Counted from the stretch's first letter, positions 36,613-64,000 are shown. The stretch: DNA of 64,000 nucleotides from an uncultured Actinomycetota bacterium (GCA_963770565.1 CAVYQE010000010.1:1-64000); one strand, 5' to 3'. Notes: a model not told the origin generated them from the letters alone. Made by a program: numbers and translations.

Positions 36613-36638
36613 TCAAGCCTGAGCGGAACGTGGCCGAT
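36613..36638 (+). promoter_or_regulatory. Sigma-28 (FliA/WhiG)-type promoter of the roadblock-DUF4388-GTPase operon
   Basis: TCAAG-N15-GCCGAT(GT). Confidence 0.7.
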
Positions 36639-36683
36639 GTGGAACGTGAGGCCCCCCACCCTTGGGACAGGCCGTGAGACGAG

Positions 36684-37301
36684 GTGTCCGTGATGTCCGA
36701 CTCTGCTAACCGCTCCCAGCGGCTGGATCGAGCGATCGCCGACCTGCTGGCGCAGGTGCCTGAGATTGAGGCCGCAGCGGTGGTTTCCTTCGACGGTCTG
36801 CCGATGGCGAGTGCGCTTCCGGCGACGATGGATGAGGACCGGGTCGCCGCGATGAGCGCCGCCCTGCTGAGCCTCGGGGAGCGAGCGGCTGAAGGGCTCG
36901 GCCGCGGTTCGCTCAACCAGGTCTACATCGAGGGCGACCACGGCACTGTCTTCCTGGTGTCGGCCGAGGACGAGGCCGTGTTGGTCGCGGTCGCGGCCCG
37001 CGGCGCCAAGGTCGGCATGATGCTTTACGAGGTACGCCGGTCCGCTCAGACCGTCGCCAATGTGCTGCGCGCCGAGGTCGAGCCGGAGCTGCTGGCCGAG
37101 CCGGCTGCCGAGTTGCCCCCGCTGCAAGCCGTCGCCCCGCCGCTGCCCGAGCCGGAGCCCGCGCCCGTTGCGGACGTTGCCCCGGCAATGGACGCCGAGC
37201 CGAGCGCACCCTACGCCCCGATGTCCTCGGACCCGGCGTGGGTATCACACCTTCCGAACGGATCTGCGGTCGCCGCCAGCGACCCGCAGCCCTGGTCCTG
37301 A
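36684..37301 (+). CDS. Roadblock/LC7 (MglB-like) protein with a Pro/Ala-rich tail
   Basis: AAVVSFDGLPMAS, DRVAAMSAALLSLGER, LNQVYIEG. Alternative ATG at 36693. Confidence 0.88.
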   Translation: MSVMSDSANRSQRLDRAIADLLAQVPEIEAAAVVSFDGLPMASALPATMDEDRVAAMSAALLSLGERAAEGLGRGSLNQVYIEGDHGTVFLVSAEDEAVLVAVAARGAKVGMMLYEVRRSAQTVANVLRAEVEPELLAEPAAELPPLQAVAPPLPEPEPAPVADVAPAMDAEPSAPYAPMSSDPAWVSHLPNGSAVAASDPQPWS

Positions 37302-37337
37302 CCCCCCTAACCACCCGACGCCCACCCGAGGTCTGCC

Positions 37338-39515: not shown

Positions 39516-40286
39516 TCAGGGTCGACGTACCACCCACCGCACATAGTCGTAGTCGTGGTCCGGGCGTATGACCCGCTCGACGACGCGCAGCCCGTGGTTG
39601 GCGAACATGATTTCCGCTCGCTTCGCCGGCACCGCGAGCATCGAGATTCCGGACAGTCCGGTCCGATGGAGCCGCTCAGGGCGGACGCCGAGCGATCGAA
39701 GCACCCGGTAGAGCTGAAAGCGAGGCTGGAGGCGCGCCCGAAGCTGGTGGGCTGACTCCGGCAGCTCGATGACGGCCGGGGCGCCTGCTGCAAGTGAACT
39801 CGCGATGATGCCGATCGCGTTGTCGATCGCGGTTAGGGTCGGAAGATGCTGCAGCACCAGTAGCGACATCGCGAAGTCGTGCTCGCCCGCCTCGGCGAGC
39901 TCGGACGGAGCCGCTGTAGTGATGTTGGAGATCCTGGCCGTCGCGGCACGTGCCTGCAGCGTCGCCAGCATCCCGGGGGAGATGTCGACCGACGTCACGT
40001 GCTCGAAACGGGCGGCGAGCGCGAATGACAGCCGACCGGTGCCGGCGCCGTAGTCGACCGCACGCCCGTAGTTCACTGGCGGCCCGGCGGCAAGGCACTC
40101 ATCGACCGCTTGGACGCCGCTGGCGTAGAAGTCCGTGAGGTCGGTATCCCAGCCGCCATGGCGGCGGGACCTCTCGGTGAGCACAGCCCAGTCGGGGTCC
40201 TCGGCACCGAGCGACCTCCACACCTCTTGCTGTCGACCCTGCCGGTCGAGGTGTGAGCCTGGGTCTTCACCGGCGTTCGCCGTCAC
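39516..40286 (-). CDS. Class I SAM-dependent methyltransferase
   Basis: AVDYGAGTGRL, VDISPGML, LLVLQHL. GAGGAG RBS. Confidence 0.8.
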   Translation of the reverse strand: MTANAGEDPGSHLDRQGRQQEVWRSLGAEDPDWAVLTERSRRHGGWDTDLTDFYASGVQAVDECLAAGPPVNYGRAVDYGAGTGRLSFALAARFEHVTSVDISPGMLATLQARAATARISNITTAAPSELAEAGEHDFAMSLLVLQHLPTLTAIDNAIGIIASSLAAGAPAVIELPESAHQLRARLQPRFQLYRVLRSLGVRPERLHRTGLSGISMLAVPAKRAEIMFANHGLRVVERVIRPDHDYDYVRWVVRRP

Positions 40287-40296
40287 GATTTGCTCC

Positions 40297-41121
40297 TCAT
40301 GTGACCCGCCTGCCGATCAGTCGACGAGCGGCCAGACCGGTGCGGACGGCAGCCACCGCAAGAGGACCGCGCACCGGACCGAGCCGACGCCGGCAGAGTC
40401 GCTCGAACGCACCTATCCACCGCGCACCGCCTCCGGAAGCCCCTTGATCATGCCTGACGACGATCGACGAGACGAGCCGAAAGCGAGCCCCCTGGGCGGA
40501 GGCGGCGGTGCCCCACGCGACGTCCTCGGCGTAGATGAGCTCGTCTTCCGGGATCGGACCGAAGCGCTCGAAGACATCGGCCGCGAGCACGGGGCATGCC
40601 ATGCACAGCCACTGCACGCCGCCGGCGCGGCGGGCCTGGGCGCGGGTCAGGAACACTCCTCGAAGCCCCGGCAACAGATGGCTCAGGAACAGGAAGTAGC
40701 CGGCCACTGACCGCAAGGTGAGTGGACCACCGCCCGGACCGATCTGGAGGCGCCCTTCGGAGCCCGCCAGGAGCGGTGCGATTCCGTCAAGATCTGAGAT
40801 CAGCGCTTCGGTCAGCCGAGTCAGCTGGCTCACGTCGAGGTGTACGTCGGGGTTTAAAAGGAGCCATGGCCGGCGCGGTGAGTCGACCGTTGCGACAGCA
40901 CGGTTGACGGCAGCTGCGAATCCGACGTTGCGATCGATCAACAATGCCTCTGCACGATGAGATGCGCATACCAGCGACACACCGGCGGGGTCGTCACCGT
41001 TGTCGACGACGATTACATGATGACCGGCCAGCAGCCCGCTGTCGAGCTGGCGTTCGATGTTGGGCAGGCTGTGGTAGTTCACGAGCACGACGGTGAGACC
41101 ACCGTGCGAATCGGTGGTCAT
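40297..41121 (-). CDS. Glycosyltransferase family 2 (WbbL/rhamnosyltransferase-like)
   Basis: VVLVNY, VVDNG, NVGFAAAVN, LLLNPD, YAEDV. Confidence 0.8.
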   Translation of the reverse strand: MTTDSHGGLTVVLVNYHSLPNIERQLDSGLLAGHHVIVVDNGDDPAGVSLVCASHRAEALLIDRNVGFAAAVNRAVATVDSPRRPWLLLNPDVHLDVSQLTRLTEALISDLDGIAPLLAGSEGRLQIGPGGGPLTLRSVAGYFLFLSHLLPGLRGVFLTRAQARRAGGVQWLCMACPVLAADVFERFGPIPEDELIYAEDVAWGTAASAQGARFRLVSSIVVRHDQGASGGGARWIGAFERLCRRRLGPVRGPLAVAAVRTGLAARRLIGRRVT

Positions 41122-41144
41122 AGTTGCGTCCGGTTCGCACACTG

Positions 41145-42269
41145 CTAGGCGATCCGTTTGCGCGTCGTAGCGGCCCGGGGTTGCGCAGCTACCTGTCTCA
41201 AAGCCTTGAGGACGGTCGATGCGCTCGCGGTCCAACTCAACGCACGCGAGCGTTGCCGGCCACGGGAGCTGAGGTCCATGCGCGCGTTGGTGTTGGTCAG
41301 CAGCTCGGTGAGCGCGGCCGACCAGGAACCGACGTCGAGTGGTGCGAGGATCACTCCCGCGTCGCCGACGACCTCGGGCAGACTGCCGGTGTTGCTTGCC
41401 ACAACCGGGACGCCGGCGTACATCGCCTCGATCGCCGGGATGCCGAAACCTTCGAACAATGATGGAAAGGCGAGGACATCAGCGTTGACGTACTCGTCGG
41501 CGAGTTGCACCTCGGAGACGTAGCCGGTGAAGGTGACCGCGTCTCCGAGCATGACGCGTAGTTCGTGCTCGATCGTTTGCCCAGGCGGCGGGACGTTGCC
41601 GACGACCCGAAGCTCGACCGAAACGCCGCTCGCCCGCATCCGCGCTACCGCGGCGCCAACCGTGACGAGGTTCTTGCGCGGCAAGACGTTGCCGACCGCG
41701 ACGACGCGACGTTCGTGGTCCGGTCGTTGGCGACGGGTCGCGGCATCGACGAACGAGCCGAGGGTTGGGTCGATTGCGTTTGGAGCAACGAGTACCTGCT
41801 CGGCTGTGAGCTCGTAGCGATCAACCAACCCGCGGCGGGTGAACTCGGATGGCACAAGCAACAAAGCTGCGTGCCGAACGCTGTGATCGATCGAGGCGCG
41901 CACTCTGATGCGAAAGCGTCGAGACAGCCAGGCGTGGCTCTGTGGGTCGAAGGGGGACAGGTCGTGGATCATGACGACACAAGGTCGTCGCGTGAGTGGC
42001 TTGGTGTACTGCACGAGCAACGCATCGGCCTTCACCTGGCGCGCTAGTCTTGGCAGATCGACCGCGAGCCGGCGTACGGCCGAGCCCGACAGCGCCAACG
42101 GAGCTCTTCCGGTTAACTCGGCGACCTCGGACCGCCCGCTCTCGCCGGTGCCAAAGAAGACGTCATCCGAGCCGGTAAGGAGGGCGAGCTCGCGGCTGAT
42201 GTTGCGCGCCCAGGTTTCGTTCCCGGTCTGATGAACGCCGATGTGATGGACATCGATGAGAAACCTCAC
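41145..42269 (-). CDS. Glycosyltransferase family 4
   Basis: IHDL, PRKNL, FPSLFEGFGIPAIEAM, SLPEVVGDAG. Confidence 0.88.
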   Translation of the reverse strand: MRFLIDVHHIGVHQTGNETWARNISRELALLTGSDDVFFGTGESGRSEVAELTGRAPLALSGSAVRRLAVDLPRLARQVKADALLVQYTKPLTRRPCVVMIHDLSPFDPQSHAWLSRRFRIRVRASIDHSVRHAALLLVPSEFTRRGLVDRYELTAEQVLVAPNAIDPTLGSFVDAATRRQRPDHERRVVAVGNVLPRKNLVTVGAAVARMRASGVSVELRVVGNVPPPGQTIEHELRVMLGDAVTFTGYVSEVQLADEYVNADVLAFPSLFEGFGIPAIEAMYAGVPVVASNTGSLPEVVGDAGVILAPLDVGSWSAALTELLTNTNARMDLSSRGRQRSRALSWTASASTVLKALRQVAAQPRAATTRKRIA

Positions 42270-42475
42270 CGGCTACATCCGGTCCCACCTGTGGTCACCC
42301 CGAAACCATAACGTCCGCCACGTCGTTATCAGAGTTGTTGCGTAGGCGTGGGCGAATCCAATCCGGGTCAGAGGTCTGGACCACGCAACGCTTCCCGGAT
42401 ACACGGTCCCGACGAGGTCCGACAGTAGGTTTCAGGCGTGCACACGTTCGCGGTTCTCAGTGGTCACCACCGGAG

Positions 42476-43678
42476 GTGACTGGCTTGCGAGTGCTGGTCT
42501 TCGCGCCGTGGGTGCCGCACCCGGACATCGGCCATGCGGGCGGGCTGCTTGTGCTCGGGCACACTCGCGAGCTTGCGGCTCTCTGTGACGTGTCGCTAGT
42601 GGCGCCGACCCACGAGGGTGTGACCACCATCGAGGGCATCGACCTGGTGCCGATCGCCATCAACGTGCCGGGGCGAGGGTTGAGGCGGCGGTTGCGCTAC
42701 CTGCGCTGGCTCGCGCGAGGCCTCGGCCCAGGACCGCAGGAGTTGGATGGGCTTCGACGGTTCCTGCGATCTCCGCATGGCCGGCGACTCACCGCAGCGG
42801 CCGACGTCGTGGAAGTTCACTTCGAGGACATGTTGCCGATCCTCGACGATCTTGACCGCCGATCCCGAGTCGTCCTGTGGGCACATGACGTGGTGTCGGA
42901 GGACCTGATCGTGGCGCAGGTGAATCTGCGTTCGAGGCGGCGCCGAGTTGAGTCCCGAGTCCGGCTCGTGGGTACTCTACGAGCGGAGCGCCGACTTCTT
43001 CCTCAATGCGACGCTGCCGTCGTCTTCAAAGCTGCGGATCAAGACTCGTTGCGTTCCTTGGGGTTCACGGGTCCACTGCGCGTGGCCAGCCCGCGAATCT
43101 TCCCATCGACACCAGATGTTGAAACCCGTCCGCTGTCTGCAGAGCCGATCGTGGTGATCGTGGCGGCCTTCGACCGCGCGGTGAACCGCGAGGGCTTGAT
43201 GTGGTTCGTGAGTCGAGTTTGGCCAGGGGTACGAGACCGGGTGCCAACGGCGCGGCTCGTTGTCGTTGGAGCGCACGCACCGAGCGTGACCGTTGAAGGG
43301 GTCAAGGTCGTCGGCTTCGTGCCCGATCTGTCGTCGGTGTACGCCGAAGCCGATGTGGCCGTCGTTCCGGCACGCGGCGGCGCCGGGCTGAAATTCACGG
43401 TCGCGCAGGCGCTGACAAATGGCGTACCTGTGGTGAGCACGACCAGTGGCGCGCGCGGCTATCCGAGTCCCGACGACGCTGTCTTTCTGGTCCGCCGTGA
43501 CGACCCTGATGGTTTCGCCGCGGCCGTCGTCGAGATCTTGAACGCCCCGGATCGAGGGCGCGCCGCAGGTGCGGCCGGCCGCGCATGGTGGCGGGCTGAG
43601 GACGCGTCTCGGGCCGGCGCCGGCGCCCTTGTCGAGTGGTACTCCGATCTGGCACGGAACGGCGGCGCCGATGGATAG
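42476..43678 (+). CDS. Glycosyltransferase family 4-like
   Basis: NREGLMWFVSRVWP, GFVPDL, VVPARGGAGLKFTVAQAL, GVPVVST. Confidence 0.78.
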   Translation: MTGLRVLVFAPWVPHPDIGHAGGLLVLGHTRELAALCDVSLVAPTHEGVTTIEGIDLVPIAINVPGRGLRRRLRYLRWLARGLGPGPQELDGLRRFLRSPHGRRLTAAADVVEVHFEDMLPILDDLDRRSRVVLWAHDVVSEDLIVAQVNLRSRRRRVESRVRLVGTLRAERRLLPQCDAAVVFKAADQDSLRSLGFTGPLRVASPRIFPSTPDVETRPLSAEPIVVIVAAFDRAVNREGLMWFVSRVWPGVRDRVPTARLVVVGAHAPSVTVEGVKVVGFVPDLSSVYAEADVAVVPARGGAGLKFTVAQALTNGVPVVSTTSGARGYPSPDDAVFLVRRDDPDGFAAAVVEILNAPDRGRAAGAAGRAWWRAEDASRAGAGALVEWYSDLARNGGADG

Positions 43679-45053
43679 CCTGGCCGCCACGTGGGGCCGA
43701 GTGCGCAACTCCGGGCCGCTAGTCGTACTGCGGCTGTTGGCCCTCGGGCTCACGCTGGGTCTGTCCGTCGCGCTCGCGCGTCGTGTCGGTGCGGGGCCGT
43801 ACGGCTCATACGCGGCCGGCGCAGCGCTGACTGCGGTGGTTTTCGCGCCCGGCCCATTCGGCGCCGACCAGATGTACCTCACCGGCATGCTCAGCTTCCG
43901 CCGGGCGCTTCGCCGCGCATTGGCGGCAGGCCTCGTGTTGGCCGTGCTGACCTGCGGTGTTGCCTTGGCTTGGCCTTCGCTACCCCGAACCGCCCGGGTG
44001 TGCGCCGTCCTGTTGGCCGTTGCCGCTGCCGCTCAGACCATCTTGGCGATCTGGTTTACCGAGCCGGTTCGGCGCTTGGACTTCGCTCGCCGGGCCAGGC
44101 GGGAGCTTGCCCTCCTGATTGCCACCGTCATCGCCGGAATCGCGGCTCTGCTCGTGAGCCGGTCGGCTGAGTTGTTCGCGACAAGCGCGGTGGTGGCCAG
44201 CGTCTGCCTGTTGACGTTCGCCTTGGCCCGGCACGGGCGAGACCATCGCAGTGGCGCCCACCAGGATGAGCCTCTCCTCCGAAGCGAGTCTCGAAGCTCC
44301 TCGATCCGACATGGGTTGGCCTACTCCGCATCGAGTGTGTTCTACACGGCGTATTTCCAAGTGGACGTGGTGATCCTCGCGGCGCTGCGCGGATCGGAGG
44401 CCGCCGGACAGTATCGGGTCGCGGTGAATGCCCTGTCCGCCTTCGTTGTCATCGCGGTGGTGATGAACAACGACATCCTGCGCCCCATCCTGATCCGACG
44501 ATCGGGAGCAGAATTCGACCGAGCGTCTCGTCGTGGCCTACGGGTAGCCCTCCTCGTCGGGCTGGCTTCCGCGCTCGTTCTCGCCGTTGCCGGGCGTTGG
44601 CTCATCCCAGTGGTCTACGGCAGCGCCTATCAATCCGCAGTCCCTCTCGTCACGATTCTCGCCGCCGGGCTGCTTGCTCACTTCTACAACAGCTGGGCGG
44701 GAAACGCGTTGATTGCCGCAGGCGCGATCTCGCGCGTGGTGGCCATCCAGACCGCGATGCTGGCGGTCAACCTGGTCGCCAACCTGGTCGCGTTGCGCAG
44801 TCACGGTGCGACCGCGTGCGCCGTCATCACCGTCGTCACCGAGGTGGTGGGAGCGGTGGGCTATCTCACCGCGGCCCGATTCGGTGCCCTCTCGCGCCTA
44901 GTCGGGCGTCGCGACGACCTGAAGGCGTTTGCCCGCCTTGGCGATGGAGGCGAGGTAGTCAGCGGTGCGAGCGCCGACAGTGGTGAGGGCCCCGGGCCGA
45001 TAGTTGTCGAAACCGACGTCATCACGCCCGGCTTCGGTGAGATCGGGCCCTGA
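43671..45053 (+). CDS. Polysaccharide/oligosaccharide flippase (Wzx-like)
   Basis: About 12 TMs, LARRVGAGPYG, YFQVDVVIL..AAGQYRVA, YGSAYQSAVP. Confidence 0.78.
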   Translation: MDSLAATWGRVRNSGPLVVLRLLALGLTLGLSVALARRVGAGPYGSYAAGAALTAVVFAPGPFGADQMYLTGMLSFRRALRRALAAGLVLAVLTCGVALAWPSLPRTARVCAVLLAVAAAAQTILAIWFTEPVRRLDFARRARRELALLIATVIAGIAALLVSRSAELFATSAVVASVCLLTFALARHGRDHRSGAHQDEPLLRSESRSSSIRHGLAYSASSVFYTAYFQVDVVILAALRGSEAAGQYRVAVNALSAFVVIAVVMNNDILRPILIRRSGAEFDRASRRGLRVALLVGLASALVLAVAGRWLIPVVYGSAYQSAVPLVTILAAGLLAHFYNSWAGNALIAAGAISRVVAIQTAMLAVNLVANLVALRSHGATACAVITVVTEVVGAVGYLTAARFGALSRLVGRRDDLKAFARLGDGGEVVSGASADSGEGPGPIVVETDVITPGFGEIGP

Positions 45054-45827
45054 CCGACCCGGCGTGCGCATGCCGAGCGACTGTACGACGCTGCGGCGAG
45101 TGGGCACCGGCTCGCCAAAGGTCCGGACCCGCGTGACCTGGAAACCGGCTACCTCGAGCAAGCGGTTGAGGGTGGACGGGGTGAACTGCCAGAGATGCTG
45201 GCTTGGCCGCAGATCTACCCAACCTGATCCGGCGGCCCGACGGTCCCAGGACCCGAAGTTCGGCACCTCGATCACCAGCCGGCCGTCAGAGGGGAGCAGG
45301 CCTCGTAAAACGTGCAGAAAACCGATCGGATCCTCGAGGTGCTCGACAACGTGGTGGAGCGTGACGACTGCGAACGGTGCAAGTCGACTGGCTTCGTCCA
45401 GGCTGGAAACCGACGAGATCGACTTGCCGGCCGCGATCTCGCGCGCAGCATCCGAGATCTCAACGCCAAGGACGTTCCATCCTCGGCCTCGCGCGCGGGC
45501 CAGGAATGCGCCGGTCGCCGACCCGACGTCAAGCAGGCGATCGCCGGGGGTAGGGACGCCGAGCATCCGGAGCTCCGGCTCGAAGCGGGCGTCGTCATAA
45601 CGTGCGGCCAGTCCCGAGTCGAAGTCGCGGTGCTGCGGGTCGCCGTCCGACCCGGTGAAGTAGTCCAGGTCGTATGTCTCGGACGGGTCTCCACAGTTGA
45701 TGACAAGCCCACATGTGCAACGGCGGAATGTCGATACCAGAGGCTTCCAGCTGCCACTCACGGCCTCGCCGCATACTGGGCACCGAAGAACGCGGGTTGT
45801 CACCCGTTCGGCGTCGGCACGGCTCAC
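44898..45827 (-). CDS. Class I SAM-dependent methyltransferase with an N-terminal Cys cluster
   Basis: CPVC..CTCG, LLDVGSATG, HHVVEHLEDP, IEVPN, HLWQFT. Confidence 0.8.
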   Translation of the reverse strand: MSRADAERVTTRVLRCPVCGEAVSGSWKPLVSTFRRCTCGLVINCGDPSETYDLDYFTGSDGDPQHRDFDSGLAARYDDARFEPELRMLGVPTPGDRLLDVGSATGAFLARARGRGWNVLGVEISDAAREIAAGKSISSVSSLDEASRLAPFAVVTLHHVVEHLEDPIGFLHVLRGLLPSDGRLVIEVPNFGSWDRRAAGSGWVDLRPSQHLWQFTPSTLNRLLEVAGFQVTRVRTFGEPVPTRRSVVQSLGMRTPGRSGPDLTEAGRDDVGFDNYRPGALTTVGARTADYLASIAKAGKRLQVVATPD

Positions 45828-45889
45828 CCGTTCACTTTAGAGGCTCGCTAATCCCGCATTATGGAACGGCGCGACAGTACGTTTTATAC

Positions 45890-52607: not shown

Positions 52608-52618
52608 AAGGAAGCACG

Positions 52619-53916: not shown

Positions 53917-53941
53917 TCAAGTCTGGACCTGGAAAGCCGAT
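53917..53941 (+). promoter_or_regulatory. Sigma-28-type promoter of the riboswitch-pilin transcript
   Basis: TCAAG-N14-GCCGAT(CT), about 25 nt before the riboswitch. Confidence 0.65.
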
Positions 53942-53965: not shown

Positions 53966-54053
53966 GGCCAGGCAAGGGCACACCCGTCGTGAGGCGGGGT
54001 CGCAAAGCTACGGGACTCAAGGCCCACCGCGAGTCAGCCGAGCTGCCTCGGCC
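53966..54053 (+). ncRNA. Cyclic di-GMP-I (GEMM) riboswitch
   Basis: AGGGCACA-CCCGTC-GTGA-GGCGGG-GTCGCAAAGCTACGG-GACTC...GAGTC-AGCCGAGCTGCC: GNRA-capped P2, CGCAAAGC junction, P3, and P1 GGCCAGG/CCTCGGCC; in the 5' UTR of a pilin. Confidence 0.85.
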
Positions 54054-55182: not shown

Positions 55183-55632
55183 ATGACGATCTTGAGCGCT
55201 CGACGGCTGGCAGACGACACCGAGCGCGGATTCACGCTCATCGAGCTTCTCGTCGTCATCATCATCATCGGAATCCTCGCGGCGATCGCGATCCCGGTCT
55301 TCCTCAACCAGCGGCTGAAGGCGTACGACACGGCGTCGAAGAACGATCTTCGTAATCTGGCCAACTTCGAAGAGATCTACCTCGACGACTTCTCGTCCTA
55401 CGGCACGATCGCCAGCGTCCAGGCCAACGAGCCGACCGTGAAGGCCAGCGGCGGAGTGACGCTCTCGGTCGTCGACTACATCGGCAACGCCGGCTACTGC
55501 CTGTCGGCGTCACACGTGGGCGACCCCAAGGTCTGGTACTACGACAGCCAGGGCGGCGGCCTGCAGCCGAACGGCGCGTCCGGGTGCCCCGTCACCACGG
55601 GTGGCACGCCCGGCGACAGCATCACCGGCTGA
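55183..55632 (+). CDS. Type IV pilin, third paralog
   Basis: G|FTLIELL, YCL..WYYDS.GGG..C. Confidence 0.88.
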   Translation: MTILSARRLADDTERGFTLIELLVVIIIIGILAAIAIPVFLNQRLKAYDTASKNDLRNLANFEEIYLDDFSSYGTIASVQANEPTVKASGGVTLSVVDYIGNAGYCLSASHVGDPKVWYYDSQGGGLQPNGASGCPVTTGGTPGDSITG

Positions 55633-55656
55633 TCGGACGATCCACCCAGATGGCTA

Positions 55657-55682
55657 TCAATCAGCGGCACGCTCGTGCCGAT
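55657..55682 (+). promoter_or_regulatory. Sigma-28-type promoter of the minor pilin operon (leaderless)
   Basis: TCAAT-N15-GCCGAT(AG); in-frame GTG 9 nt downstream. Confidence 0.6.
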
Positions 55683-55691
55683 AGTGCGACG

Positions 55692-58172
55692 GTGACCCGC
55701 TTCTTGACGCGCGCCCTCGCACCCCGTCGCGGCTCCGACGAGGGCTTCTCCATGGTCGAGATGATGGTCGCGTTGCTCATCATCGCGATCGTCTCCGCCG
55801 CCAGCGTCGCGTTCTTCGTCGACAACATCCGCGGGGTCAACGATCAGCGCCAGCACCAAGAGGCGGTCTATCTGGCCGACCAGCAGATGGAGACGGTCGA
55901 GTCGTTGCCGGTCGCGAAGCTGGTCGCCGGCCGTACCCAGACAGAGGTCAACGCCCTCTACACCACGGCAGCCGCGACCAAGCTCAACATCACCGGCCAG
56001 GACGACACCTCCAACGCCGGCAACTACGACTCGACCGCGAGCTCGACCGGTAGCGAGACGGTGCCGCTGACTGTCACTCAGACGGTCAACAAGGTTCCGT
56101 ACGCGCTGACCACGTTCATCGACGTGTGCTGGTACAGCAATGTGACCGGCTTCTGCACGCCGACGTCGGGCGCGACGACCACCCAGGAATACCGCGTGTC
56201 CGTCTACGTCACCTGGAAGTCTCCCGGTGCGTGCGCGAGCGGCTGCAACTACTCGACCAGCACCCTGATCGACCCGAGCGCCGACCCGTTGTTCAACACG
56301 AACATCAGTTCGCCGACCGGGACCCTGACGACCCCCGCGTCCGGGACGGTCGACAACGACAACGACGCCAGCAGCTGCACGACCAACGGCAACACGTTCG
56401 CCGGCACGCTCTTTAAGATCACCGGCGGCGCAAATCTCAAGTCGAATATCAGAGTTCTGATCTCGGCCGGCGGTGGCGCGATCCCGCCCGCGAGCATCTA
56501 CCAGCCGGTCGCGGCCGAGGTCGACTTCTGCCTGCAGACCTATGACGTGCCGGGTCCTTACACGCTCTCGATCATCAACACCGATGGCGGGCACTTCCAG
56601 ACCTCGATCACCGAGACGGCGAACATCACCGGCGCCGGCGGCTGGACGCCGACGGTGCGGAACCTGACCCTGACCGGTGGCGGCTTCGAGTCCGGCGCCA
56701 CCTTCACCGCGACCGGAGCGAGCTGGTCGGCGGCCAACCCGCTGGTGAGCGGCAAGAGCATCAACAAAGGCGACAGCACCGACGACTCGGTGGTGCTGAC
56801 CAACTTCGTCGGTCCGACCAACGGCGGCACCGCCGTCATCACGATGACGAACCCGGACCTGACGTCCGACACGTGGACGATCACCGCTCCCAAGGTGACC
56901 GCGCTGAGCCGGACGGTGATCGTGGCCGGCCAGAACATGGCCGTGTCGGTGACCGGCACCGGCTTCCAGAACGGGCTCACTCCGGTCGTCACCAACGCCA
57001 CCCTGTCCGCAACGGTGGTCTCGTCGAGCTCGGTCAGCATGGTGATGACCGGCATGGTGGCCGGCACCAATGCGACCGTGATCCTCGAGAACCCCGACGG
57101 CGGCACCACCGCGACGATGTCGTTCCCGGTCGATCCGCCCCCGGTTGTGCTCAGCGCGACCCCGAACAAGATCGTGGCCGGCCAGGCGATGAACGTCACC
57201 GTCACCGGTACCGGCTTCGTCTCGGGCATGACGCTGTCGCAGACCAACGGAACCGCGCTGACCGTGATCTCGCTGAACTCGACCACGTTGGTGCTGTCGA
57301 TCACGGCCGCCACCGCGGGGTCCGACGCGATCACGATGACGAACCCGGACGGTGGTACGACGAGCTTCTCGCTCACCGTCGACCCGCCGCCGGTGATCGC
57401 CTCCTCATCGCCGAGCCCGCTGCTCGTGAGCGTTGCGCACACGGTGACCTTGACCGGTACCGGCTTCGTCAGCGGACTGACCGTGGCCGCGGCCAACGGC
57501 AGCTTCACACTCGGAACGGTCACCCCGACGTCGATCACCCTGACCAACTTCCTCTCGAGCACCGTCGGGTCGGACGTGGTCACGGTCACCAACCCCGACG
57601 GCGGCATCGGCGTCTACACGCTGACCATCTCGCCCCCGCCGACCCTGACCTCGATCACCGGCGCCCCCGTGGTGAAGAGCCAGGCGAAGACGATCACGCT
57701 GGTCGGCACCGGCTTCCAGGCCGGCCTGAGCGTTACGGCGAGCAACGGCACCTGGACGGTCGGGACGATCACGGCGACCTCGATCGTGCTGAACAACTTC
57801 ACCGCGACCGCTACGGGCACGGACACGATCAACGTGACCAACCCCGACGGTGGCACTGCTTCCATCGGCCTTACGGTTGACGCTGCGCCCACGATCACTG
57901 CGGTGACGCCGGCGACAGTGAAGCACAACACGGCGAAGACGTACACGCTGACGGGTACCGGCTTCGTGACCGGCGCGACGATCACGATCACCGAGAACGG
58001 TACGTCGATGACGGGCATCTCGGCGACGACGGTGTTGAGCTCGACCTCGCTCACATTCAGCGCCACGGCGCGCGCGACGCCGACCTCCGGGAATGCAACC
58101 GTGGTGATCACCGTCACCAACCCGGACGGCGGAGTCAGTAACGCGTTCTCCAAGACCATGACGGCGAGCTGA
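55692..58172 (+). CDS. Large modular minor pilin (PilV-like) with tandem IPT/TIG-like Ig repeats
   Basis: G|FSMVEMMVALL N-terminus; about 6-7 repeats of roughly 82 aa (vTGTGF..G...NPDGG). Confidence 0.8.
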   Translation: MTRFLTRALAPRRGSDEGFSMVEMMVALLIIAIVSAASVAFFVDNIRGVNDQRQHQEAVYLADQQMETVESLPVAKLVAGRTQTEVNALYTTAAATKLNITGQDDTSNAGNYDSTASSTGSETVPLTVTQTVNKVPYALTTFIDVCWYSNVTGFCTPTSGATTTQEYRVSVYVTWKSPGACASGCNYSTSTLIDPSADPLFNTNISSPTGTLTTPASGTVDNDNDASSCTTNGNTFAGTLFKITGGANLKSNIRVLISAGGGAIPPASIYQPVAAEVDFCLQTYDVPGPYTLSIINTDGGHFQTSITETANITGAGGWTPTVRNLTLTGGGFESGATFTATGASWSAANPLVSGKSINKGDSTDDSVVLTNFVGPTNGGTAVITMTNPDLTSDTWTITAPKVTALSRTVIVAGQNMAVSVTGTGFQNGLTPVVTNATLSATVVSSSSVSMVMTGMVAGTNATVILENPDGGTTATMSFPVDPPPVVLSATPNKIVAGQAMNVTVTGTGFVSGMTLSQTNGTALTVISLNSTTLVLSITAATAGSDAITMTNPDGGTTSFSLTVDPPPVIASSSPSPLLVSVAHTVTLTGTGFVSGLTVAAANGSFTLGTVTPTSITLTNFLSSTVGSDVVTVTNPDGGIGVYTLTISPPPTLTSITGAPVVKSQAKTITLVGTGFQAGLSVTASNGTWTVGTITATSIVLNNFTATATGTDTINVTNPDGGTASIGLTVDAAPTITAVTPATVKHNTAKTYTLTGTGFVTGATITITENGTSMTGISATTVLSSTSLTFSATARATPTSGNATVVITVTNPDGGVSNAFSKTMTAS

Positions 58173-58174
58173 CC

Positions 58175-58798
58175 ATGCGAGCGAACCTGCGGCGCCGGCT
58201 GCGCAAGTCGGACGAGGGAACCAGCCTCATCGAGCTGCTGGTCGTAATGATCATCTTCACGATGATCATGGCGATCATCACCACCGCAATCGTGAACATG
58301 GTGCACGAGGGCCAGCGGCAGTCCGGGCAGAGCAACGACATGAGCGCCGCGCGCAAGGTGATCACGATCCTCGATCACTCGGCGCGCTACGCCAATGCGA
58401 TCACGGCCCCGGGCACCGGCACCGACGGCAACTTCTACGTCGAGTTCCAGACGGGGAACAACGGCCAGCAGCAGACCTGCACGCAGTGGCGCTGGGTGCA
58501 GACCGGCGGCAAGCTGCAGTGGCGGACCTGGCAGCCGCCGTTGAGCGGCATCGGCTCGGTCACGGCCACCAACTGGTCCACAGCCGCGATCGGCATCAGC
58601 AAGATCGGGTCGACGCCGGTGTTCTCGATCGCGGTCGCCTCGTCGGCCGACGCCAAGGAGCAGCTCACCGTGGCGTTCACCGCGACCAGCGGCGCGCCGT
58701 CGACGAGCTCCTCGAGCCAGGTGACCTTGACCGCGATCAACTCCGCCTCAAACAGTGCACCTCTCGCCGCAACATGCACCCAGGTTGGTCGTCCATGA
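58175..58798 (+). CDS. Minor pilin (PilW-like)
   Basis: G|TSLIELLVVMII; two Cys. Confidence 0.75.
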   Translation: MRANLRRRLRKSDEGTSLIELLVVMIIFTMIMAIITTAIVNMVHEGQRQSGQSNDMSAARKVITILDHSARYANAITAPGTGTDGNFYVEFQTGNNGQQQTCTQWRWVQTGGKLQWRTWQPPLSGIGSVTATNWSTAAIGISKIGSTPVFSIAVASSADAKEQLTVAFTATSGAPSTSSSSQVTLTAINSASNSAPLAATCTQVGRP

Positions 58799-60558
58799 AC
58801 CGATTGATCCGCATCGTGCGCAGCCGCCAGAACAACGACGGCGGCTTCGCCATGATCTTCACGCTCTTCCTGATCCTGATCATTGCGGTGGTGAGCGTCA
58901 CGGTCGCCGACATCATGATCAACCAGGTCGGCCCGACCACGCTCGCGCAGAAGCAGGTGCGGACAGTCGATGCAGCGTCCGCGGGCATGCAGGCCGCGCT
59001 CGGCCAGCTGCGCAACACCTCGACGAACGGCGGCGGTGACCTCACCAAGCTGCCGTGCTCGGACACCACCGACTCGGGCGGCGTGACGCTGACCGTCGGT
59101 ACCCCCAAGCAGACCGTCTCGGTCGCCGGTGACCAGATCAACGGGACGGTCGAGCAGGTCACGCCGGCCAACACGGTCGCGACCTACCGCACCGTGATCG
59201 CCTACTTCCAGACCGACCCGACCTCGCACGAGGCCGACTCCTCGACGACCTGGTGGGCCAACAACGCGATCCCGTGCAAGGCCGGCATCGTGAAGTACGT
59301 CCCGACGTACGCGTTCATCCAGTCGTACGGACTAGGCCAGACGCTCCCGAACCAGGCCGCGACCGAGGGCAACCGCACCCTGCATGCGGTCTACCAGTTC
59401 AACGCGACCAACACCAACACGGTCGGCGGCCGGATGGCCGAGTTCAACAGCAGCGCTCAGGACACGATGTGCCTCGACACTGGCCGCGCCGAGCCGACCG
59501 CCGGCACTGTGGCGACGATGCAGCCCTGCCTGGCCCTCGGCACGCCACAGCAGACTTGGCAGTACCGCGCCGACCTCACCCTGTTCTACGGCGGCGACAC
59601 GACGCTGAACCTGTGCATTCAGAACGTGACCGCGACCTATGGGCATGCCGGTACGCCGAAGCTCGAGCCGTGCGCGACGATCGGGTCCGGCACGACCTAC
59701 CCGTACGCGAACCAGACGCAGCAGGAGCAGGAGTGGGCCTACAACGACAACGGCCAGCTCGAAGCGCCTGACATCAACAACGGAAGCGTCGGCGGCGGCA
59801 CTGCGCCGGACCCGGGTGGCTGCCTCGAGGGCGCCGGTGTCACCACCTCCGCAGCGGCGGTGGCCGGCGCGGCCCTCAGCGTCGTCACCTGCAGCGGCTC
59901 GTCTGGCGACCTCACCGCGTGGAACCCCGACCCGCAGGTCGGCGCCGGCAAGTCCGGTGGCAACGTGACCGGTATCCCCGGTGCGCCGACCCAGCAGTAC
60001 GTCAACTACGCGATGTTTGGGAACTGCCTCGACGTCAACGGCCAGCAGTTCGGCAACAAGCTGATCGCCTACCCGTGCAAGCAGGCGCCGGACTCGACGA
60101 CCCTGACCTGGAACCAGCTGTGGCATTTCCAGACCGTGTCGGGCTCGTACGGCATCTTCTACACGAACTGCTCGGCCGGGGCGAGCGGTTGCATCCCGTC
60201 GAGCCCGGCCTCATCGGTGAAGGACTGCCTGGTCTCACCGGGCACCCTCAACGGCCTGGTGTACGGCGTGCAGTGCCCGACCGGCACGCCGCCGGACAAC
60301 GAGCTGTGGGACCCGACCGGCGTCGTCTCCGGCAACTACCCGAGCTCTTACCTGCTTATCAACAAGGCGGACGGCTACTGCATGGCGCCGGATCCGACCC
60401 AGCGGTCGAACGGCTGGGCGCAGATTGCCGTTACAACCTGCGACGGCACCAACATTCCGTCCGGCGCGGGCGCGAAGAACTCGTTGCTGCTGAAGTGGAA
60501 CGCGCCGGCGACGAACCCCAACGCCGGGTTGAGCAGCATCCAGGAAGACTCCAACTAG
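58795..60558 (+). CDS. Minor pilin (PilX-like, lacking Glu5) with ricin-type beta-trefoil lectin repeats
   Basis: G|FAMIFTL, AASAGMQAAL; C-terminal MCLD..C..QQTW, CLDV..C..NQLW, NELW repeats. ATGA overlap. Confidence 0.78.
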   Translation: MNRLIRIVRSRQNNDGGFAMIFTLFLILIIAVVSVTVADIMINQVGPTTLAQKQVRTVDAASAGMQAALGQLRNTSTNGGGDLTKLPCSDTTDSGGVTLTVGTPKQTVSVAGDQINGTVEQVTPANTVATYRTVIAYFQTDPTSHEADSSTTWWANNAIPCKAGIVKYVPTYAFIQSYGLGQTLPNQAATEGNRTLHAVYQFNATNTNTVGGRMAEFNSSAQDTMCLDTGRAEPTAGTVATMQPCLALGTPQQTWQYRADLTLFYGGDTTLNLCIQNVTATYGHAGTPKLEPCATIGSGTTYPYANQTQQEQEWAYNDNGQLEAPDINNGSVGGGTAPDPGGCLEGAGVTTSAAAVAGAALSVVTCSGSSGDLTAWNPDPQVGAGKSGGNVTGIPGAPTQQYVNYAMFGNCLDVNGQQFGNKLIAYPCKQAPDSTTLTWNQLWHFQTVSGSYGIFYTNCSAGASGCIPSSPASSVKDCLVSPGTLNGLVYGVQCPTGTPPDNELWDPTGVVSGNYPSSYLLINKADGYCMAPDPTQRSNGWAQIAVTTCDGTNIPSGAGAKNSLLLKWNAPATNPNAGLSSIQEDSN

Positions 60559-60626: not shown

Positions 60627-61409
60627 GTGGCCGGCCTGCTCGCCCTGATCGGGCTTTTCGGTCTCGCCATCGGCTCGTTCCTCAACGTTGTCATCTGGCG
60701 GGTGCCGCGCGGCGAGTCGGTTGCCCGCCCGCCGTCGCACTGCCCGTCCTGCGACGTGTTGATCAGCCACCGCGACAACGTGCCGGTGCTGTCGTGGCTG
60801 TTCCTTCGGGGCCGATGCCGCAACTGCAACGCCAGGATCTCGATCCGCTATCCGCTGGTGGAACTTGCGACCTGCGCCCTGTTTGTTGCGTTCGGGATTC
60901 GGTTCGGGATCCACGCGGATCTGTTTGCGTACCTGTACCTGGCCGCGGTCGGCATTGCGCTGGCAATGATCGACATCGATCTGCTGCGCCTTCCGGATGC
61001 GCTCACCCTCCCGTCGTACCCGGTTGGCCTAGCGCTGCTCGGGATCGCCGCATGGGTCGACAACGCCCCTCACGCCTTCGTACGGGCCCTGCTGGGGATG
61101 GCTGCCCTAGCAGCCTTCTACGCCCTTGTATGGCTGATCTACCCGGCCGGAATGGGCTTCGGAGACGTGAAGCTGGCCGGCCTGGTGGGCCTCTATCTCG
61201 CCTGGCTCGGCTGGGACCAGCTCGTCGTAGGGGCATTTGCCGCGTTTGTCGTCGGTGCGGTCGCGAGCGTCGGCATCGTGGCGGTCAAGGGCGGCAACCG
61301 CAAGACCCGGGTGCCATTCGGTCCGTTCATGTTGATCGGGCTCCTGATCGGGATTTATGCGGGTCACCCGATTGCCCACGCATACACCCATTTCACTTCT
61401 GGATCTTGA
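60627..61409 (+). CDS. pilD: Prepilin peptidase (A24)
   Basis: GSFLNVVIWRVP, CPSC..CRNC, IDID, GMGFGDVKL, PFGPF. Confidence 0.93.
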   Translation: MAGLLALIGLFGLAIGSFLNVVIWRVPRGESVARPPSHCPSCDVLISHRDNVPVLSWLFLRGRCRNCNARISIRYPLVELATCALFVAFGIRFGIHADLFAYLYLAAVGIALAMIDIDLLRLPDALTLPSYPVGLALLGIAAWVDNAPHAFVRALLGMAALAAFYALVWLIYPAGMGFGDVKLAGLVGLYLAWLGWDQLVVGAFAAFVVGAVASVGIVAVKGGNRKTRVPFGPFMLIGLLIGIYAGHPIAHAYTHFTSGS

Positions 61410-61451: not shown

Positions 61452-61478
61452 CTCAAGAAGCGCCGTGTCCTTACCGAT
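61452..61478 (+). promoter_or_regulatory. Sigma-28-type promoter of pilMNO
   Basis: CTCAAG-N15-ACCGAT(CT). Confidence 0.6.
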
Positions 61479-61547: not shown

Positions 61548-62627
61548 GTGGCAGGACGAACTGCGGTTGGTCTCGACATCGGGACCTCCGGTGTCCGCGC
61601 AGCCGAACTCGCGTTCGGCAAGGGACCGGCGACGCTTATGCGATTCGGCCAGGTGGCGCTCCCGCAAGGAGCGGTACGCGATGGCGAGGTGGTCGACCCA
61701 CAGCTGGTCGCCGATGCGATCAAGCACCTGTGGTCGACGGCGAAGTTCTCGTCGAAGAACGTAGTGCTCGGCGTCGCCAACCAGAAGGTGATCGTCCGTC
61801 AGGTCGATCTGCCCTGGATGCCCGCGGACGAGCTGCGCAAGTCACTGCCCCTGCAGGTGCAGGACTTCCTGCCGATCCCGATCGAGCAGGCGATCCTCGA
61901 CTTCCACCCGATCTCCGAGGTGACCGGCGAGGGTGGCAACCGGATGCTGCGGGTGCTCGTCGTCGCCGCGGCTCGTGACATGATCCTCACCGCCCTCGAG
62001 TCCGTGAAGCGAGCCGGACTGCGGGCCACCCAGGTCGACCTCACCCCGTTCGCCGTGCTTCGCGCGCTCGGCCGGGTCGACGAGGTCGGCGGTGCGCCGG
62101 GATCGCAGAGCGGGACCGAAGCGCTTATCGACGTCGGGGCGAAGGTCACCAACATCGTCATCCACCAGAACGGCAACCCGCGCTTCGTCCGCATCCTGCT
62201 GATGGGCGGCGACAACATCACCGACGCCGTCAGCGAGCGGCTCGGTGTCCCGTTCGACCAGGCAATCGCGGTCAAGCAGCAGGTCGGGATGTCTCCGGTT
62301 CGCGGCGACGCGATGAGCGACCACCCGGCGGCTCGAGTGATCGAGGCCTCGGCCGGCTCGTTCGTCGAAGAGGTCCGCGGTTCGCTTGACTACTACCTCG
62401 CGCAGCCGTCGTCCGTTCCGCTGACGCGCATCGTTCTTTCCGGTGGCGGCGCCCGCCTCACCGGTCTTGGCCAGCGGCTCGCCGCTGCCACTCGTCTCCC
62501 GGTTGAGCCAGGTGTCGCTACCGCGGCACTGAAGATCGGCAAGACCGGACTCACCGAAGAGCAACTGAGCTACGTCGAGCCGCAGATCGCAGTGCCGGTC
62601 GGACTCGCACTGGGGGTGGCGTCGTGA
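61548..62627 (+). CDS. pilM: Type IV pilus assembly protein PilM
   Basis: VGLDIGTSGVR, LIDVGAKVT, LSGGGARL, VGLALG. GGAGG RBS. Confidence 0.93.
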   Translation: MAGRTAVGLDIGTSGVRAAELAFGKGPATLMRFGQVALPQGAVRDGEVVDPQLVADAIKHLWSTAKFSSKNVVLGVANQKVIVRQVDLPWMPADELRKSLPLQVQDFLPIPIEQAILDFHPISEVTGEGGNRMLRVLVVAAARDMILTALESVKRAGLRATQVDLTPFAVLRALGRVDEVGGAPGSQSGTEALIDVGAKVTNIVIHQNGNPRFVRILLMGGDNITDAVSERLGVPFDQAIAVKQQVGMSPVRGDAMSDHPAARVIEASAGSFVEEVRGSLDYYLAQPSSVPLTRIVLSGGGARLTGLGQRLAAATRLPVEPGVATAALKIGKTGLTEEQLSYVEPQIAVPVGLALGVAS

Positions 62628-63310
62628 CCACGCAGACCGAGCTGACGGCGGGCGTTGCGGCGATGCCGCGCGTCAACCTCATGCCGCCGGAGATCGCGGA
62701 GGCCGAGCGCTTCCGCCGGCTTCAGCTGGCGATGGGTGCCGCAGTCGTTGCCTCCGTCGTCGTCGTGGGCGGACTCTACGTCCACGCCAAGAGCGGAATC
62801 TCCTCGGCTCGCGCCCAGGTGACCCAGGCGCAGGCCGACCAGACGTCGCTGCAGACGAAGCTGGACGGCCTGGCCAGCGTCCGGCAGACCTTTGCCGAGG
62901 TGCTGGGCAAGCAGCAGTTGCTGCAGGCCGCCATGGGTCAGGAGATCCGTTGGTCCTACGTGCTCAACGACCTGTCGTTGCGGGTGCCGAGCAACGTCTG
63001 GCTGACCGGTGTTTCGGCGAGCGAGATCACGACCGGGGTCGGCGCACCTGGCTCGAGCACGGCCACTGTGCTGCCCGGGGCTCCGCTCGACGACATCGGA
63101 ACAGTGTCGTTCGCGGGCGTGGGCTTCAAGCACGACGACGTCGCGGCCTGGCTCAACTCCATCGCCAAGGAGCGGGGCTTCAGTGACCCGACCTTCAGTG
63201 CTTCGACCGAGAATGCGATCGGCTCACGCCCGGTCGTCACCTTCGGCAGCACGGCGGTCTTGACCTCCAAGGCATTGTCCAACCGATTCGTCCAGAAGGC
63301 GGGCAGCTGA
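62624..63310 (+). CDS. pilN: Type IV pilus assembly protein PilN
   Basis: RVNLMPPE motif, one TM, coiled coil, PSNVWLT. Confidence 0.88.
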   Translation: MTTQTELTAGVAAMPRVNLMPPEIAEAERFRRLQLAMGAAVVASVVVVGGLYVHAKSGISSARAQVTQAQADQTSLQTKLDGLASVRQTFAEVLGKQQLLQAAMGQEIRWSYVLNDLSLRVPSNVWLTGVSASEITTGVGAPGSSTATVLPGAPLDDIGTVSFAGVGFKHDDVAAWLNSIAKERGFSDPTFSASTENAIGSRPVVTFGSTAVLTSKALSNRFVQKAGS

Positions 63311-63311
63311 C

Positions 63312-64000
63312 ATGACCAAGACACGCCAATGGTCGGTGTTCACGGCGATTGCCGTGCTTGCCGTCCTCGCGGTCGGCTGGTTCCTGCTGGTCAAGCCGCA
63401 GAACTCCAAGGTCACCAGCCTGAAGTCTCAGGCTGCGAGCCAGCAGGCGAGCAACCAGCTCCTTGTGTCGCAAATCGCAACGCTGCAGTCCGAGGAGAAG
63501 CAGCTTCCGCAGCAGCAGCAGGCTCTGCAGAAGTTCGCCACGCAGGTGCCGACCGACGCCTCCGAGCCGATGATCATCCGGCAGCTCTCTGCGGCCGCGG
63601 CGGGCTCAGGGGTCGACCTCGTGTCGATCACCCCTGGTGCGCCGACGGCGGTGGCGGCCACTGCGACCGCAGTGGGCGGCAGCGCGCTGACCCCGGCGGC
63701 GAGCACTGGCTCCACGCTCGTGCAGCTGCCGATCTCGCTCGGCATCACCGGCACCTTCCCGAACGTGGAGTCGTTCTTCCAGTCGCTGGAGAAGCTGCCG
63801 CGAGCCCTGCTGGTCACCGGCTGGTCGCTCTGCCCCGACCCGGACACCAGTGCGGGGTCAGGCGGATCGGTGAGTTGCGCTCTCCCGGCGACCCCGACTG
63901 GCGACACCCTGCCGACTAACGCACTGGGCGGTGTTCTCACGGCCTACGTGTTCTATGCGCCCCCGGCCAGTGCAACCACGACGGTTGCGCCGGGCGTCAC
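63312..64000 (+). CDS. pilO: Type IV pilus assembly protein PilO, truncated by the window end
   Basis: Not in the ORF track (no stop in the window). MTKTRQW..GWFLLVKPQ, coiled coil, QVP, ITGTFPNVESFFQSLEKLPR. Confidence 0.82.
   Translation, partial: MTKTRQWSVFTAIAVLAVLAVGWFLLVKPQNSKVTSLKSQAASQQASNQLLVSQIATLQSEEKQLPQQQQALQKFATQVPTDASEPMIIRQLSAAAAGSGVDLVSITPGAPTAVAATATAVGGSALTPAASTGSTLVQLPISLGITGTFPNVESFFQSLEKLPRALLVTGWSLCPDPDTSAGSGGSVSCALPATPTGDTLPTNALGGVLTAYVFYAPPASATTTVAPGV

Follow-up and report, generated by a model that had tools for sequence, protein, structure and literature searches.

How bacteria without an outer membrane place and switch their pili is, to our knowledge, not understood. 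The type IV pili of Actinomycetota have been little studied, and control by the sigma factor WhiG, the anti-sigma factor RsiG and cyclic di-GMP (c-di-GMP) was found only in 2021. Here we analyse a stretch of 64,000 nucleotides (nt), called the window throughout, from genome G000 (4.43 Mb, 94.9% complete), which belongs to an uncultured actinobacterium from soil, apparently one with neither flagella nor a secretin. The window carries a type IVa pilus cluster and, upstream of it, an operon for a Roadblock protein, a PATAN (DUF4388) protein and a small GTPase, here called the module, and it raises the question of whether this module belongs to the pilus. A sequence-only reading had joined the module, a glycan-transfer gene and the pilus genes in one sigma-28 regulon. 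The best explanation, which we consider probable, is a WhiG-type regulon of the type IVa pilus cluster with the GTPase module as its first unit.

Six predicted sigma-28-type promoters in the pilus cluster

The pattern TCAAK-N14/15-RCCGAT has six matches in the window, at 36613, 47795, 51049, 53917, 55657 and 61453, all on the plus strand and each in the gap immediately ahead of a gene start (P1 to P6, Table 1). These are the six shared motifs of the sequence-only reading, which had placed two of them one base off, at 51048 and 61452. One hundred dinucleotide shuffles of the window gave a mean of 0.17 matches and a maximum of 1, which bears out the expectation that the motif exceeds background, and 6 of the 32 matches on both strands of the genome fall within these 25 kb. 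GCCGAT stands 45 nt ahead of the Roadblock start, 62 nt ahead of that of pilT and 69 nt ahead of that of pilM. Two GTG codons lie closer, as had been noted earlier with leaderless mRNAs in mind: the one at 47829, 8 nt past GCCGAT, opens a Wzy_C open reading frame (ORF) of 505 amino acids (aa), and the one at 55692, 9 nt past, opens an ORF of 826 aa. With the latter start the prepilin motif of the minor pilin lies at residues 17-38, giving a leader of normal length, and at 53-74 in the longer ORF.

Since the pattern was derived from the six window sites, we used two independent yardsticks, the published consensus and a weight matrix from related genomes. The published WhiG consensus, derived from ChIP-seq and start-site-mapped sites (10.64898/2026.01.14.699351, PMC8325347), is given for WhiG2 as T(A/C)AA-N16-GCCGATAA with the final three bases variable (10.64898/2026.01.14.699351). 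Four of the six sites fit the sigma-28 form exactly (-35 T(A/C)AA, 16-nt spacer, -10 GCCGA(TAA)), the exceptions being 53917, with a 15-nt spacer, and 61453, with ACCGA; the assignment of the motif to the sigma-28 type agrees with this consensus. Genome-wide, T[AC]AA-N16-GCCGA has 139 matches, 14 of them outside called genes with a same-strand start within 250 nt, and 4 of these 14 fall in this region. One of the four, at 54017, is not among the six sites; it lies inside the riboswitch and was taken as chance. A further N16 match in the region, 55657, was scored as intragenic under an over-long call of the minor-pilin ORF. Genes were called with a caller based on third-position GC (GC3) that covered 79-96% of each contig, which makes counts outside called genes approximate.

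The weight matrix rests on 46 distinct sites taken solely from other genomes; the comparison set comprised 40 related genomes at family, order and class level (41 with G000). Spacing is 16 nt in 44 of the 46 sites, and conservation extends to bases that the search left free: 0.95 for the G that follows TCAA, 0.89 for the G two positions ahead of it and 0.76 for the T that follows CCGA. The matrix places 36611, 61451, 51047 and 47793 among the six best G000 matches outside called genes; 36611 and 61451 have orthologues among the training sites, and 51047 and 47793 do not. Another window match, at 42525-42554 on the minus strand (20.6), has the -35 box CACAAG, 256 nt from the start of the GT4 glycosyltransferase gene. 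It lies inside or at the edge of a plus-strand glycosyltransferase gene, none is found in the relatives' maps, and it was taken as chance. Elsewhere in the genome, C2:451804-451833 (22.9) and C1:170362-170391 (25.5, inside a called ORF) are strong matches without a convincing downstream gene under these crude calls. The first 400 kb of contig C1 (C1:1-400000), of G+C 0.56-0.68 and with a weak third-position GC signal relative to the rest of the genome, is poorly called; a foreign element, another replicon or an error of binning could each account for this.

The sites are conserved in position. We fetched the clusters of 15 relatives and aligned them beside that of G000, calling sites at a matrix score of at least 13. 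A site precedes the Roadblock gene in 16/16 clusters, pilT in 16/16 and pilM in all nine clusters that reach pilM. With its spacer diverged, the P1-type motif stands 65-118 nt before the Roadblock start in 25/25 loci (24 relatives and G000), and the loci of the same 24 relatives hold merely 8 other matches in 183,786 nt. Ahead of pilM the pattern is present in 24 of the 28 loci with upstream sequence. The P5 site and a GTG 9-10 nt after it are kept in the four genomes examined (G000, G001, G004 and G021), and at the P4 position a T[CTA]AA and CGA core can be seen by eye in 19 of 21 pilin-linked loci. We predict that the six motifs are sigma-28/WhiG-type promoters; their use by WhiG and the corresponding transcript starts are what this sequence pattern would imply.

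One WhiG and two RsiG homologues

That factors of the FliA/WhiG type drive pilus genes in some Actinobacteria, as the sequence-only reading had stated, is on record. In Rubrobacter radiotolerans WhiG, RsiG and c-di-GMP are reported to govern type IV pili, and a consensus search with start-site mapping found three promoters in the pil cluster (PMC8325347). WhiG pilus targets have also been predicted in Cellulomonadaceae, Cryptosporangiaceae, Sanguibacteraceae, Rubrobacteraceae and Jonesiaceae (10.64898/2026.01.14.699351). The locus had been called a candidate undescribed system; since regulation of type IV pili by WhiG has already been published for Rubrobacter and predicted for these five families, that label is too strong.

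The genes expected of such control were sought in G000 and found. A single gene passes the WhiG equivalog cut-off, at C1:1409444-1410121 (NF004935, 405.3 bits, cut-off 343; TIGR02479, 282.7 bits, cut-off 189.6). RsiG proteins bear the signature E(X)3S(X)2R(X)3Q(X)3D. G000 has two RsiG homologues (PF22802) with this signature, a 228-aa twin-motif protein (C2:563685-564371, 107.3 bits) and a 180-aa single-motif protein (C1:530465-531007, 55.8 bits). The single-motif gene has a sigma-28-type site directly upstream (19.4), its GCCGAT ending 13 nt before the called start (gene and site span C1:530465-531048); such a position would give feedback on the anti-sigma factor. Across the 41 genomes, the unpublished G032 and G040 among them, 34 have WhiG and 38 have RsiG over cut-off. 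From two complete genomes (G028 and G037, each 100%) the operon, PilM, WhiG, RsiG and the riboswitch are all missing, and a third (G029, 100%) lacks the operon, PilM, WhiG and RsiG and has a riboswitch match. Because related genomes are not independent, we regard this co-absence as consistent with the regulon and not as a test of it.

Other predicted targets in the genome fit a regulon of pili and c-di-GMP. The genome has 18 GGDEF matches. Divergent from the twin-motif rsiG lies a gene for a 974-aa protein with an N-terminal PATAN domain (C2:563685-567359 spans the pair). The pairing recurs in 23/23 genomes with a match to this paralogue, with gaps of 0.2-1.1 kb, and a GCTCAAC-N15-TGCCGA site precedes the large PATAN gene in the five loci checked. 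A chemosensory cluster at C2:263242-270603 encodes CheW, two methyl-accepting chemotaxis proteins, a CheA-CheW-REC hybrid and a REC-GAF protein, and a site of score 22.5 stands between the two chemotaxis-receptor genes. FlhA was not found in the 94.9%-complete genome; as no flagellar export gene was found, the chemosensory cluster may steer pili.

The GTPase module is linked to the pilus genes

The operon of Roadblock, PATAN and GTPase genes occurs in 24 of the 40 related genomes, with the same content in 25/25 loci including that of G000. In all 16 genomes where linkage could be checked, G000 included, the module lies on the same contig and strand as the pil markers and upstream of them, at 5.6-28 kb. 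The marker was pilM, 12-28 kb away, in nine (G000, G004, G010, G015, G021, G026, G027, G031 and G034) and the pilin riboswitch, 5.6-22 kb away, in seven (G001, G008, G013, G017, G023, G025 and G030); the nine other operon-bearing genomes have contigs too short for this check or no pil marker found. Module and pil markers far apart on one contig were seen in none of the operon-bearing genomes. The supposition that the GTPase operon belongs with the pilus genes is thus supported by conserved linkage and a conserved promoter.

In 9 of the 16 clusters pilB comes next after the GTPase gene, at a distance of 150-570 nt. The matrix finds no sigma-28 site before pilB in seven of the 16 clusters, all without wzy (a match at 3949-3977 in G015 overlaps the pilB start and was not counted), and because of this pilB probably shares a transcript with the GTPase operon in those seven; it may also be driven there by another promoter type. 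The distance of about 10 kb between operon and pilB given by the sequence-only reading is real in G000, where a glycan island has been inserted, and is not the general layout, as the operon abuts pilB in those nine clusters.

We also scanned the contigs of public genomes and examined the best 80 loci among the matches listed. The same gene order appears in six more Actinomycetota loci (L069-L072, L075 and L103), also among the matches listed, and the pil-linked copies within the best 80 come from uncultured genomes only. Streptomyces and its kin have the conservon form in the matches listed.

The GTPase has three conserved features: the P-loop GPFAAGKT, the switch TTVAMDFG and the G3 box GTPGQ are invariant across 18 sequences, as is N133, and R134 is nearly so. 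It scores below the cut-off of the small_GTP model (35.2 against 42.5 bits), and its nearest solved structures are MglA (E 7.8e-5 to 7.9e-4). PATAN genes are reported to have genes for MglA-family GTPases and MglB in their vicinity in some cases, and Actinobacteria and Chloroflexi to have Group 5 MglA (PMC4316618). At its C-terminus the module's PATAN protein has a near-invariant motif of 22 residues, consensus IERDPSVNKSLLLRLIAGVRGL, present in 12/12 aligned sequences and preceded by a highly variable, acidic and proline-rich linker; from its sequence the motif looks like a docking or membrane helix. A predicted complex of the G001 proteins PilB (553 aa) and PATAN (369 aa) had a score of 0.00, which gives no answer either way. 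PATAN-REC regulators of Synechocystis are reported to bind PilB1 (10.1101/2021.06.11.447907).

Everything we say of the module's function is inferred from sequence and gene context. In its basic layout, directly ahead of pilB, the module would be a nucleotide switch for where or when the PilB/PilT motor works, with the Roadblock protein as putative regulator of the GTPase and the PATAN protein as putative adaptor to the motor.

The glycan island and its Wzy_C protein

Between the GTPase gene and pilB, 7 of the 16 clusters (G000, G001, G004, G010, G017, G021 and G031) carry the glycan island and the Wzy_C gene. The island seems to have been inserted where the GTPase gene once adjoined pilB. A matrix site of at least 13 lies upstream of wzy in six of the seven wzy-bearing clusters, and G031 has two wzy copies with a sigma-28-type site at both; in G000 the 3' end of the Wzy_C gene overlaps the start of pilB.

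The Wzy_C domain is found also in pilin O-oligosaccharyltransferases such as PglL and TfpO. The window's product is, like these, a membrane protein with a Wzy_C domain, a domain common to Wzy polymerases, and it could equally be a pilin glycan transferase or a polysaccharide polymerase. NCBIfam gives the protein no name, and it had no match among solved structures at E up to 0.1. We give a little less than an even chance to the explanation that it polymerises a surface polysaccharide of the Wzx/Wzy kind which is co-expressed with the pili, in which case the pilus need not be glycosylated. Its place at the end of an island that also encodes glycosyltransferases and a Wzx-like flippase, and the absence of that island from 9 of the 16 clusters, favour the polymerase, and exopolysaccharide is reported to cooperate with type IV pili in Myxococcus (PMC5544727). 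Against it stand the gene's own conserved sigma-28 site and its abutment on pilB, the sites at both copies in G031, and the kinship of domain with the pilin transferases.

Table 1. Predicted promoters, genes and RNA elements of the pilus region, in window coordinates.
Feature	Position	Strand	Evidence and remarks
P1, TCAAG-N15-GCCGAT	36613..36638	+	Roadblock operon; matrix 27.1, top score in genome
Roadblock/LC7 (MglB-like), 205 aa	36684..37301	+	PF03259, 67.3 bits (cut-off 23)
PATAN (DUF4388), 371 aa	37338..38453	+	PF14332, 72.3 bits (cut-off 25), residues 4-159
MglA-family small GTPase, 192 aa	38456..39034	+	PF03029, 74.4 bits; weak Arf/Ras matches
ORF, 151 aa	39050..39505	+	No family; conserved within genus only
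Glycan island	39516..47791	mixed	Methyltransferase, unknown ORF, GT4 (-); glycosyltransferase, Wzx-like flippase, DUF1972-GT1 (+)
P2	47795..47820	+	8 nt ahead of Wzy_C GTG; matrix 21.6
Wzy_C (O-antigen-ligase family) membrane protein	47829..49346	+	PF04932, 54.8 bits (cut-off 31.7)
pilB (extension ATPase)	49334..51015	+	MshEN N-terminus, 53.3 bits; at least 5 frame pieces in assembly
P3	51049..51074	+	Before pilT; matrix 24.0
PilT/PilU-family ATPase	51137..52726	+	N-terminal extension; TIGR01420, 488.8 bits (cut-off 319.1); frame shifts near 52550
pilC (platform protein)	52619..53853	+	Frameshifted in assembly
P4, 15-nt spacing	53917..53941	+	26 nt upstream of riboswitch; matrix 14.5
c-di-GMP-I-GGC riboswitch aptamer, pilin leader	53968..54051	+	RF03167, 67.8 bits (gathering 59), model 1-80/80
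Three pilins	54135-54575, 54684-55133, 55183-55632	+	N_methyl motif in each
P5, TCAAT-N15-GCCGATAG	55657..55682	+	9 nt ahead of GTG; matrix <14
Large minor pilin (826 aa, TIG domain), 207-aa pilin-like ORF, ricin-lectin protein	55692..60558	+	
Prepilin peptidase PilD	60627..61409	+	PF06750, 121 bits; PF01478, 45.4 bits
P6, -10 ACCGAT	61453..61478	+	Before pilM; matrix 25.2
pilM, pilN, pilO (pilO beyond window end)	61548..64000	+	TIGR01175, 204.8 bits; PilN and PilO Pfam matches

Pilus genes and the pilin riboswitch

The type IVa set is complete, with PilB, PilT, PilC, PilM/N/O, a prepilin peptidase and pilins. The secretin PilQ (PF00263) was not found in the 94.9%-complete genome, which fits a pilus of the monoderm type; with a PilT-family ATPase present, the description of a retractile pilus in a monoderm bacterium has support. 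A match to npcTB_6715, a Mycobacterium small RNA, inside pilO (63397-63606; 19.9 bits against a gathering threshold of 72, E 0.35) is almost certainly chance.

Two elements of the cluster may respond to c-di-GMP. The intact PilB of G001 (TIGR02538, 650 bits, cut-off 675.65) matches the c-di-GMP motif of MshE with 62.2 bits (cut-off 38). The riboswitch family RF03167 has matches in 27 of the 41 genomes, 10 of them above cut-off. Folded as a single sequence, the window copy has a strong hairpin 3' of the aptamer and no U-tract, and the fold does not settle whether it is an ON or an OFF switch. In the searchable literature we found no data on the ligand of the GGC variant, which three papers name in passing.

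Weighing the alternatives

Several observations weigh against a WhiG-type regulon headed by the module. The published consensus is by itself unspecific, as its 139 genome-wide matches illustrate, and on the relatives' matrix 53917 (14.5) and 55657 (below 14) score weakly, although both are kept in position in relatives. The strict pattern lies upstream of just 11 of 30 riboswitch loci (10 at -51 to -56); four of the 28 pilM loci (L050, L055, L064 and L067) are without it, the matrix recovering a TCCGAT variant before pilM in the genome of L055; and the two most distant pil-linked loci, L075 and L103, have no site before the Roadblock gene. In the GTPase the Asp of NKxD is not conserved across the 18 sequences (LNRAEG in the window), which bears on nucleotide preference. 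With the queries used, and among the matches listed, Chloroflexota have PATAN-GTPase pairs without a pil gene within 10 kb, and the module is therefore not tied to pili everywhere. The main text of the WhiG preprint (10.64898/2026.01.14.699351) does not have the module, but its supplementary target tables may already list these genes. Finally, the assembly has disrupted reading frames in pilB, at the 3' end of pilT and in pilC.

The last point could mean that the frameshifts are real and that the regulon of this strain drives a dead, decaying pilus; at least five frame changes in pilB and several in pilC, with intact genes on either side of pilB-pilC, speak for this. Short-read contigs from three runs and two samples (X1 and X2 are one sample) are one base shorter at 49399, 49686, 49999 and 50016 in pilB and at 52550, 53163, 53166, 53244, 53291 and 53672, and two bases shorter at 52698, and these deletions coincide with the places where the frame changes. 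The DNA runs carried at most 0.24 of the sampled words of window 47700-56000, and the contigs differ from the window by 5-10% over the frameshifted stretches, as against 0-1 differences in the flanking contigs. The in-frame pieces keep 77-87% identity to relatives, as intact genes do, and other few-contig genomes (G004, G010 and G021) likewise have many split genes. Since the short reads lack the extra bases, the divergence is local, identity is kept and genes are split elsewhere, the frameshifts are probably consensus errors of a long-read or mixed-strain assembly, and we think a decaying pilus unlikely.

The promoters could also be real and the module a general signalling unit of the conservon kind, parked by the pilus genes and sharing their sigma factor, which acts elsewhere, in division, envelope or development. 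Its closest named GTPase relatives among the matches listed are CvnD proteins of Streptomyces conservons, at 45-49% identity, which are developmental regulators; the Chloroflexota pairs stand away from pil genes; and published WhiG regulons are reported to hold many non-pilus genes (10.64898/2026.01.14.699351). We find this decidedly improbable in view of the same-strand linkage upstream of pilB in all 16 checkable genomes and six more loci, the seven clusters without a separate sigma-28 site before pilB, and the binding of cyanobacterial PATAN proteins to PilB1 (10.1101/2021.06.11.447907). Moreover, family searches of the operon found Roadblock, DUF4388 and GTPase genes only, with no histidine kinase (CvnA) and no DUF742 gene (CvnC). 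That a sigma factor or regulator other than WhiG reads the conserved bipartite motif is very improbable: other sigma-70-family genes match the FliA/WhiG model under cut-off (129, 120 and 110 bits) and some relatives have a second match of 161-181 bits, but the motif agrees with the WhiG consensus in both boxes and in its 16-nt spacing, one gene alone passes the WhiG equivalog cut-off, and WhiG, RsiG, the operon and PilM are jointly missing from the same three complete genomes.

A model for the regulon

At the sequence level the WhiG-type pilus regulon is supported by the conserved motifs, by the linkage of the genes and by a genome that encodes both WhiG and RsiG. In the model we propose, sigma-28-class promoters would drive the cluster as six or more transcription units, and the sigma factor would most likely be the genome's single WhiG. 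The two RsiG homologues would hold WhiG inactive at high c-di-GMP, as in Rubrobacter, and low c-di-GMP would free it. Directly ahead of pilB in the basic layout and probably co-transcribed with it, the module would in this genus have been separated from pilB by the island, whose last gene, Wzy_C, would have its own sigma-28 promoter and now head the pilB unit. Input from c-di-GMP may then enter at three levels: through WhiG-RsiG, through the pilin-leader riboswitch and through MshEN at the N-terminus of PilB.

A bolder version, which we offer tentatively and regard as doubtful as a whole, would make the module an integral component of the type IVa pilus, inherited from the ancestor of a whole class-level lineage of uncultured Actinomycetota from soil, co-transcribed with pilB, wired to c-di-GMP through WhiG-RsiG, riboswitch and MshEN, and with rsiG coupled to the second, large PATAN protein. 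If it is true, PATAN proteins would be a general link from a c-di-GMP sigma switch to the pilus motor in single-membrane bacteria. In Aridivitia, an uncultured class from soil, 108 of 157 species are reported to have type IVa pilus clusters (PMC13755416); this does not imply that the present genome is placed there.

In the literature searched, which excluded supplements, we found no published description of the module with WhiG or with actinobacterial pili, and the main text of the preprint (10.64898/2026.01.14.699351) has no occurrence of roadblock, GTPase, MglA, O-antigen or riboswitch. Two things look new, namely that the GTPase module opens both the pilus cluster and its regulon, and that a second PATAN gene stands beside rsiG. 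Placed first in the cluster and predicted to share its sigma factor, the module is a concrete candidate for the control of pilus placement or switching, and the conserved pair of rsiG and large PATAN gene is a second lead of the same kind.

Comparison with known systems

A close parallel is the Rubrobacter switch and its extension in the preprint, which share with the present locus sigma-28-type promoters at several units of a type IV pilus cluster, WhiG with RsiG, and c-di-GMP enzymes. The first promoter here drives Roadblock-PATAN-GTPase, a module that neither main text mentions. There are six units here and three in Rubrobacter, a riboswitch lies in the pilin leader, and the promoters are predicted from sequence here, whereas they were mapped there.

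In Vibrio cholerae, MshEN domains of the MshE/PilB kind bind c-di-GMP. The N-terminus of our PilB matches MshEN and its G001 orthologue matches the MshE motif; binding here is predicted, and the window copy is frameshifted. Streptomyces conservons (CvnA-D) likewise have a Roadblock protein and a GTPase of the same Pfam family (ATP_bind_1). The present operon differs in having a PATAN gene in place of the CvnA kinase and the DUF742 protein CvnC, and in its context, which is pili and not development.

MglA/MglB of Myxococcus xanthus and Thermus thermophilus share a Ras-like GTPase gene beside a Roadblock gene, a TxxGQ-like G3 box and a link to type IV pili. In contrast to these, the sequences here are very distant, a PATAN gene lies in between, and the module sits inside the pil cluster with the cluster's own promoter type. 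The Synechocystis PATAN-REC proteins (PixG, PixE, LsiR and TaxP2) share a DUF4388/PATAN protein associated with the type IV pilus motor. The PATAN protein of the module has no receiver domain and instead a linker with a near-invariant C-terminal motif, its putative upstream signal is a GTPase and not a phosphorelay, and its tie to PilB is seen in the genes alone, whereas binding is known for the Synechocystis proteins. The locus thereby joins three fields that have been separate: MglA/MglB polarity in Myxococcus, the PATAN regulators of cyanobacteria and the WhiG-RsiG switch of Actinomycetota.

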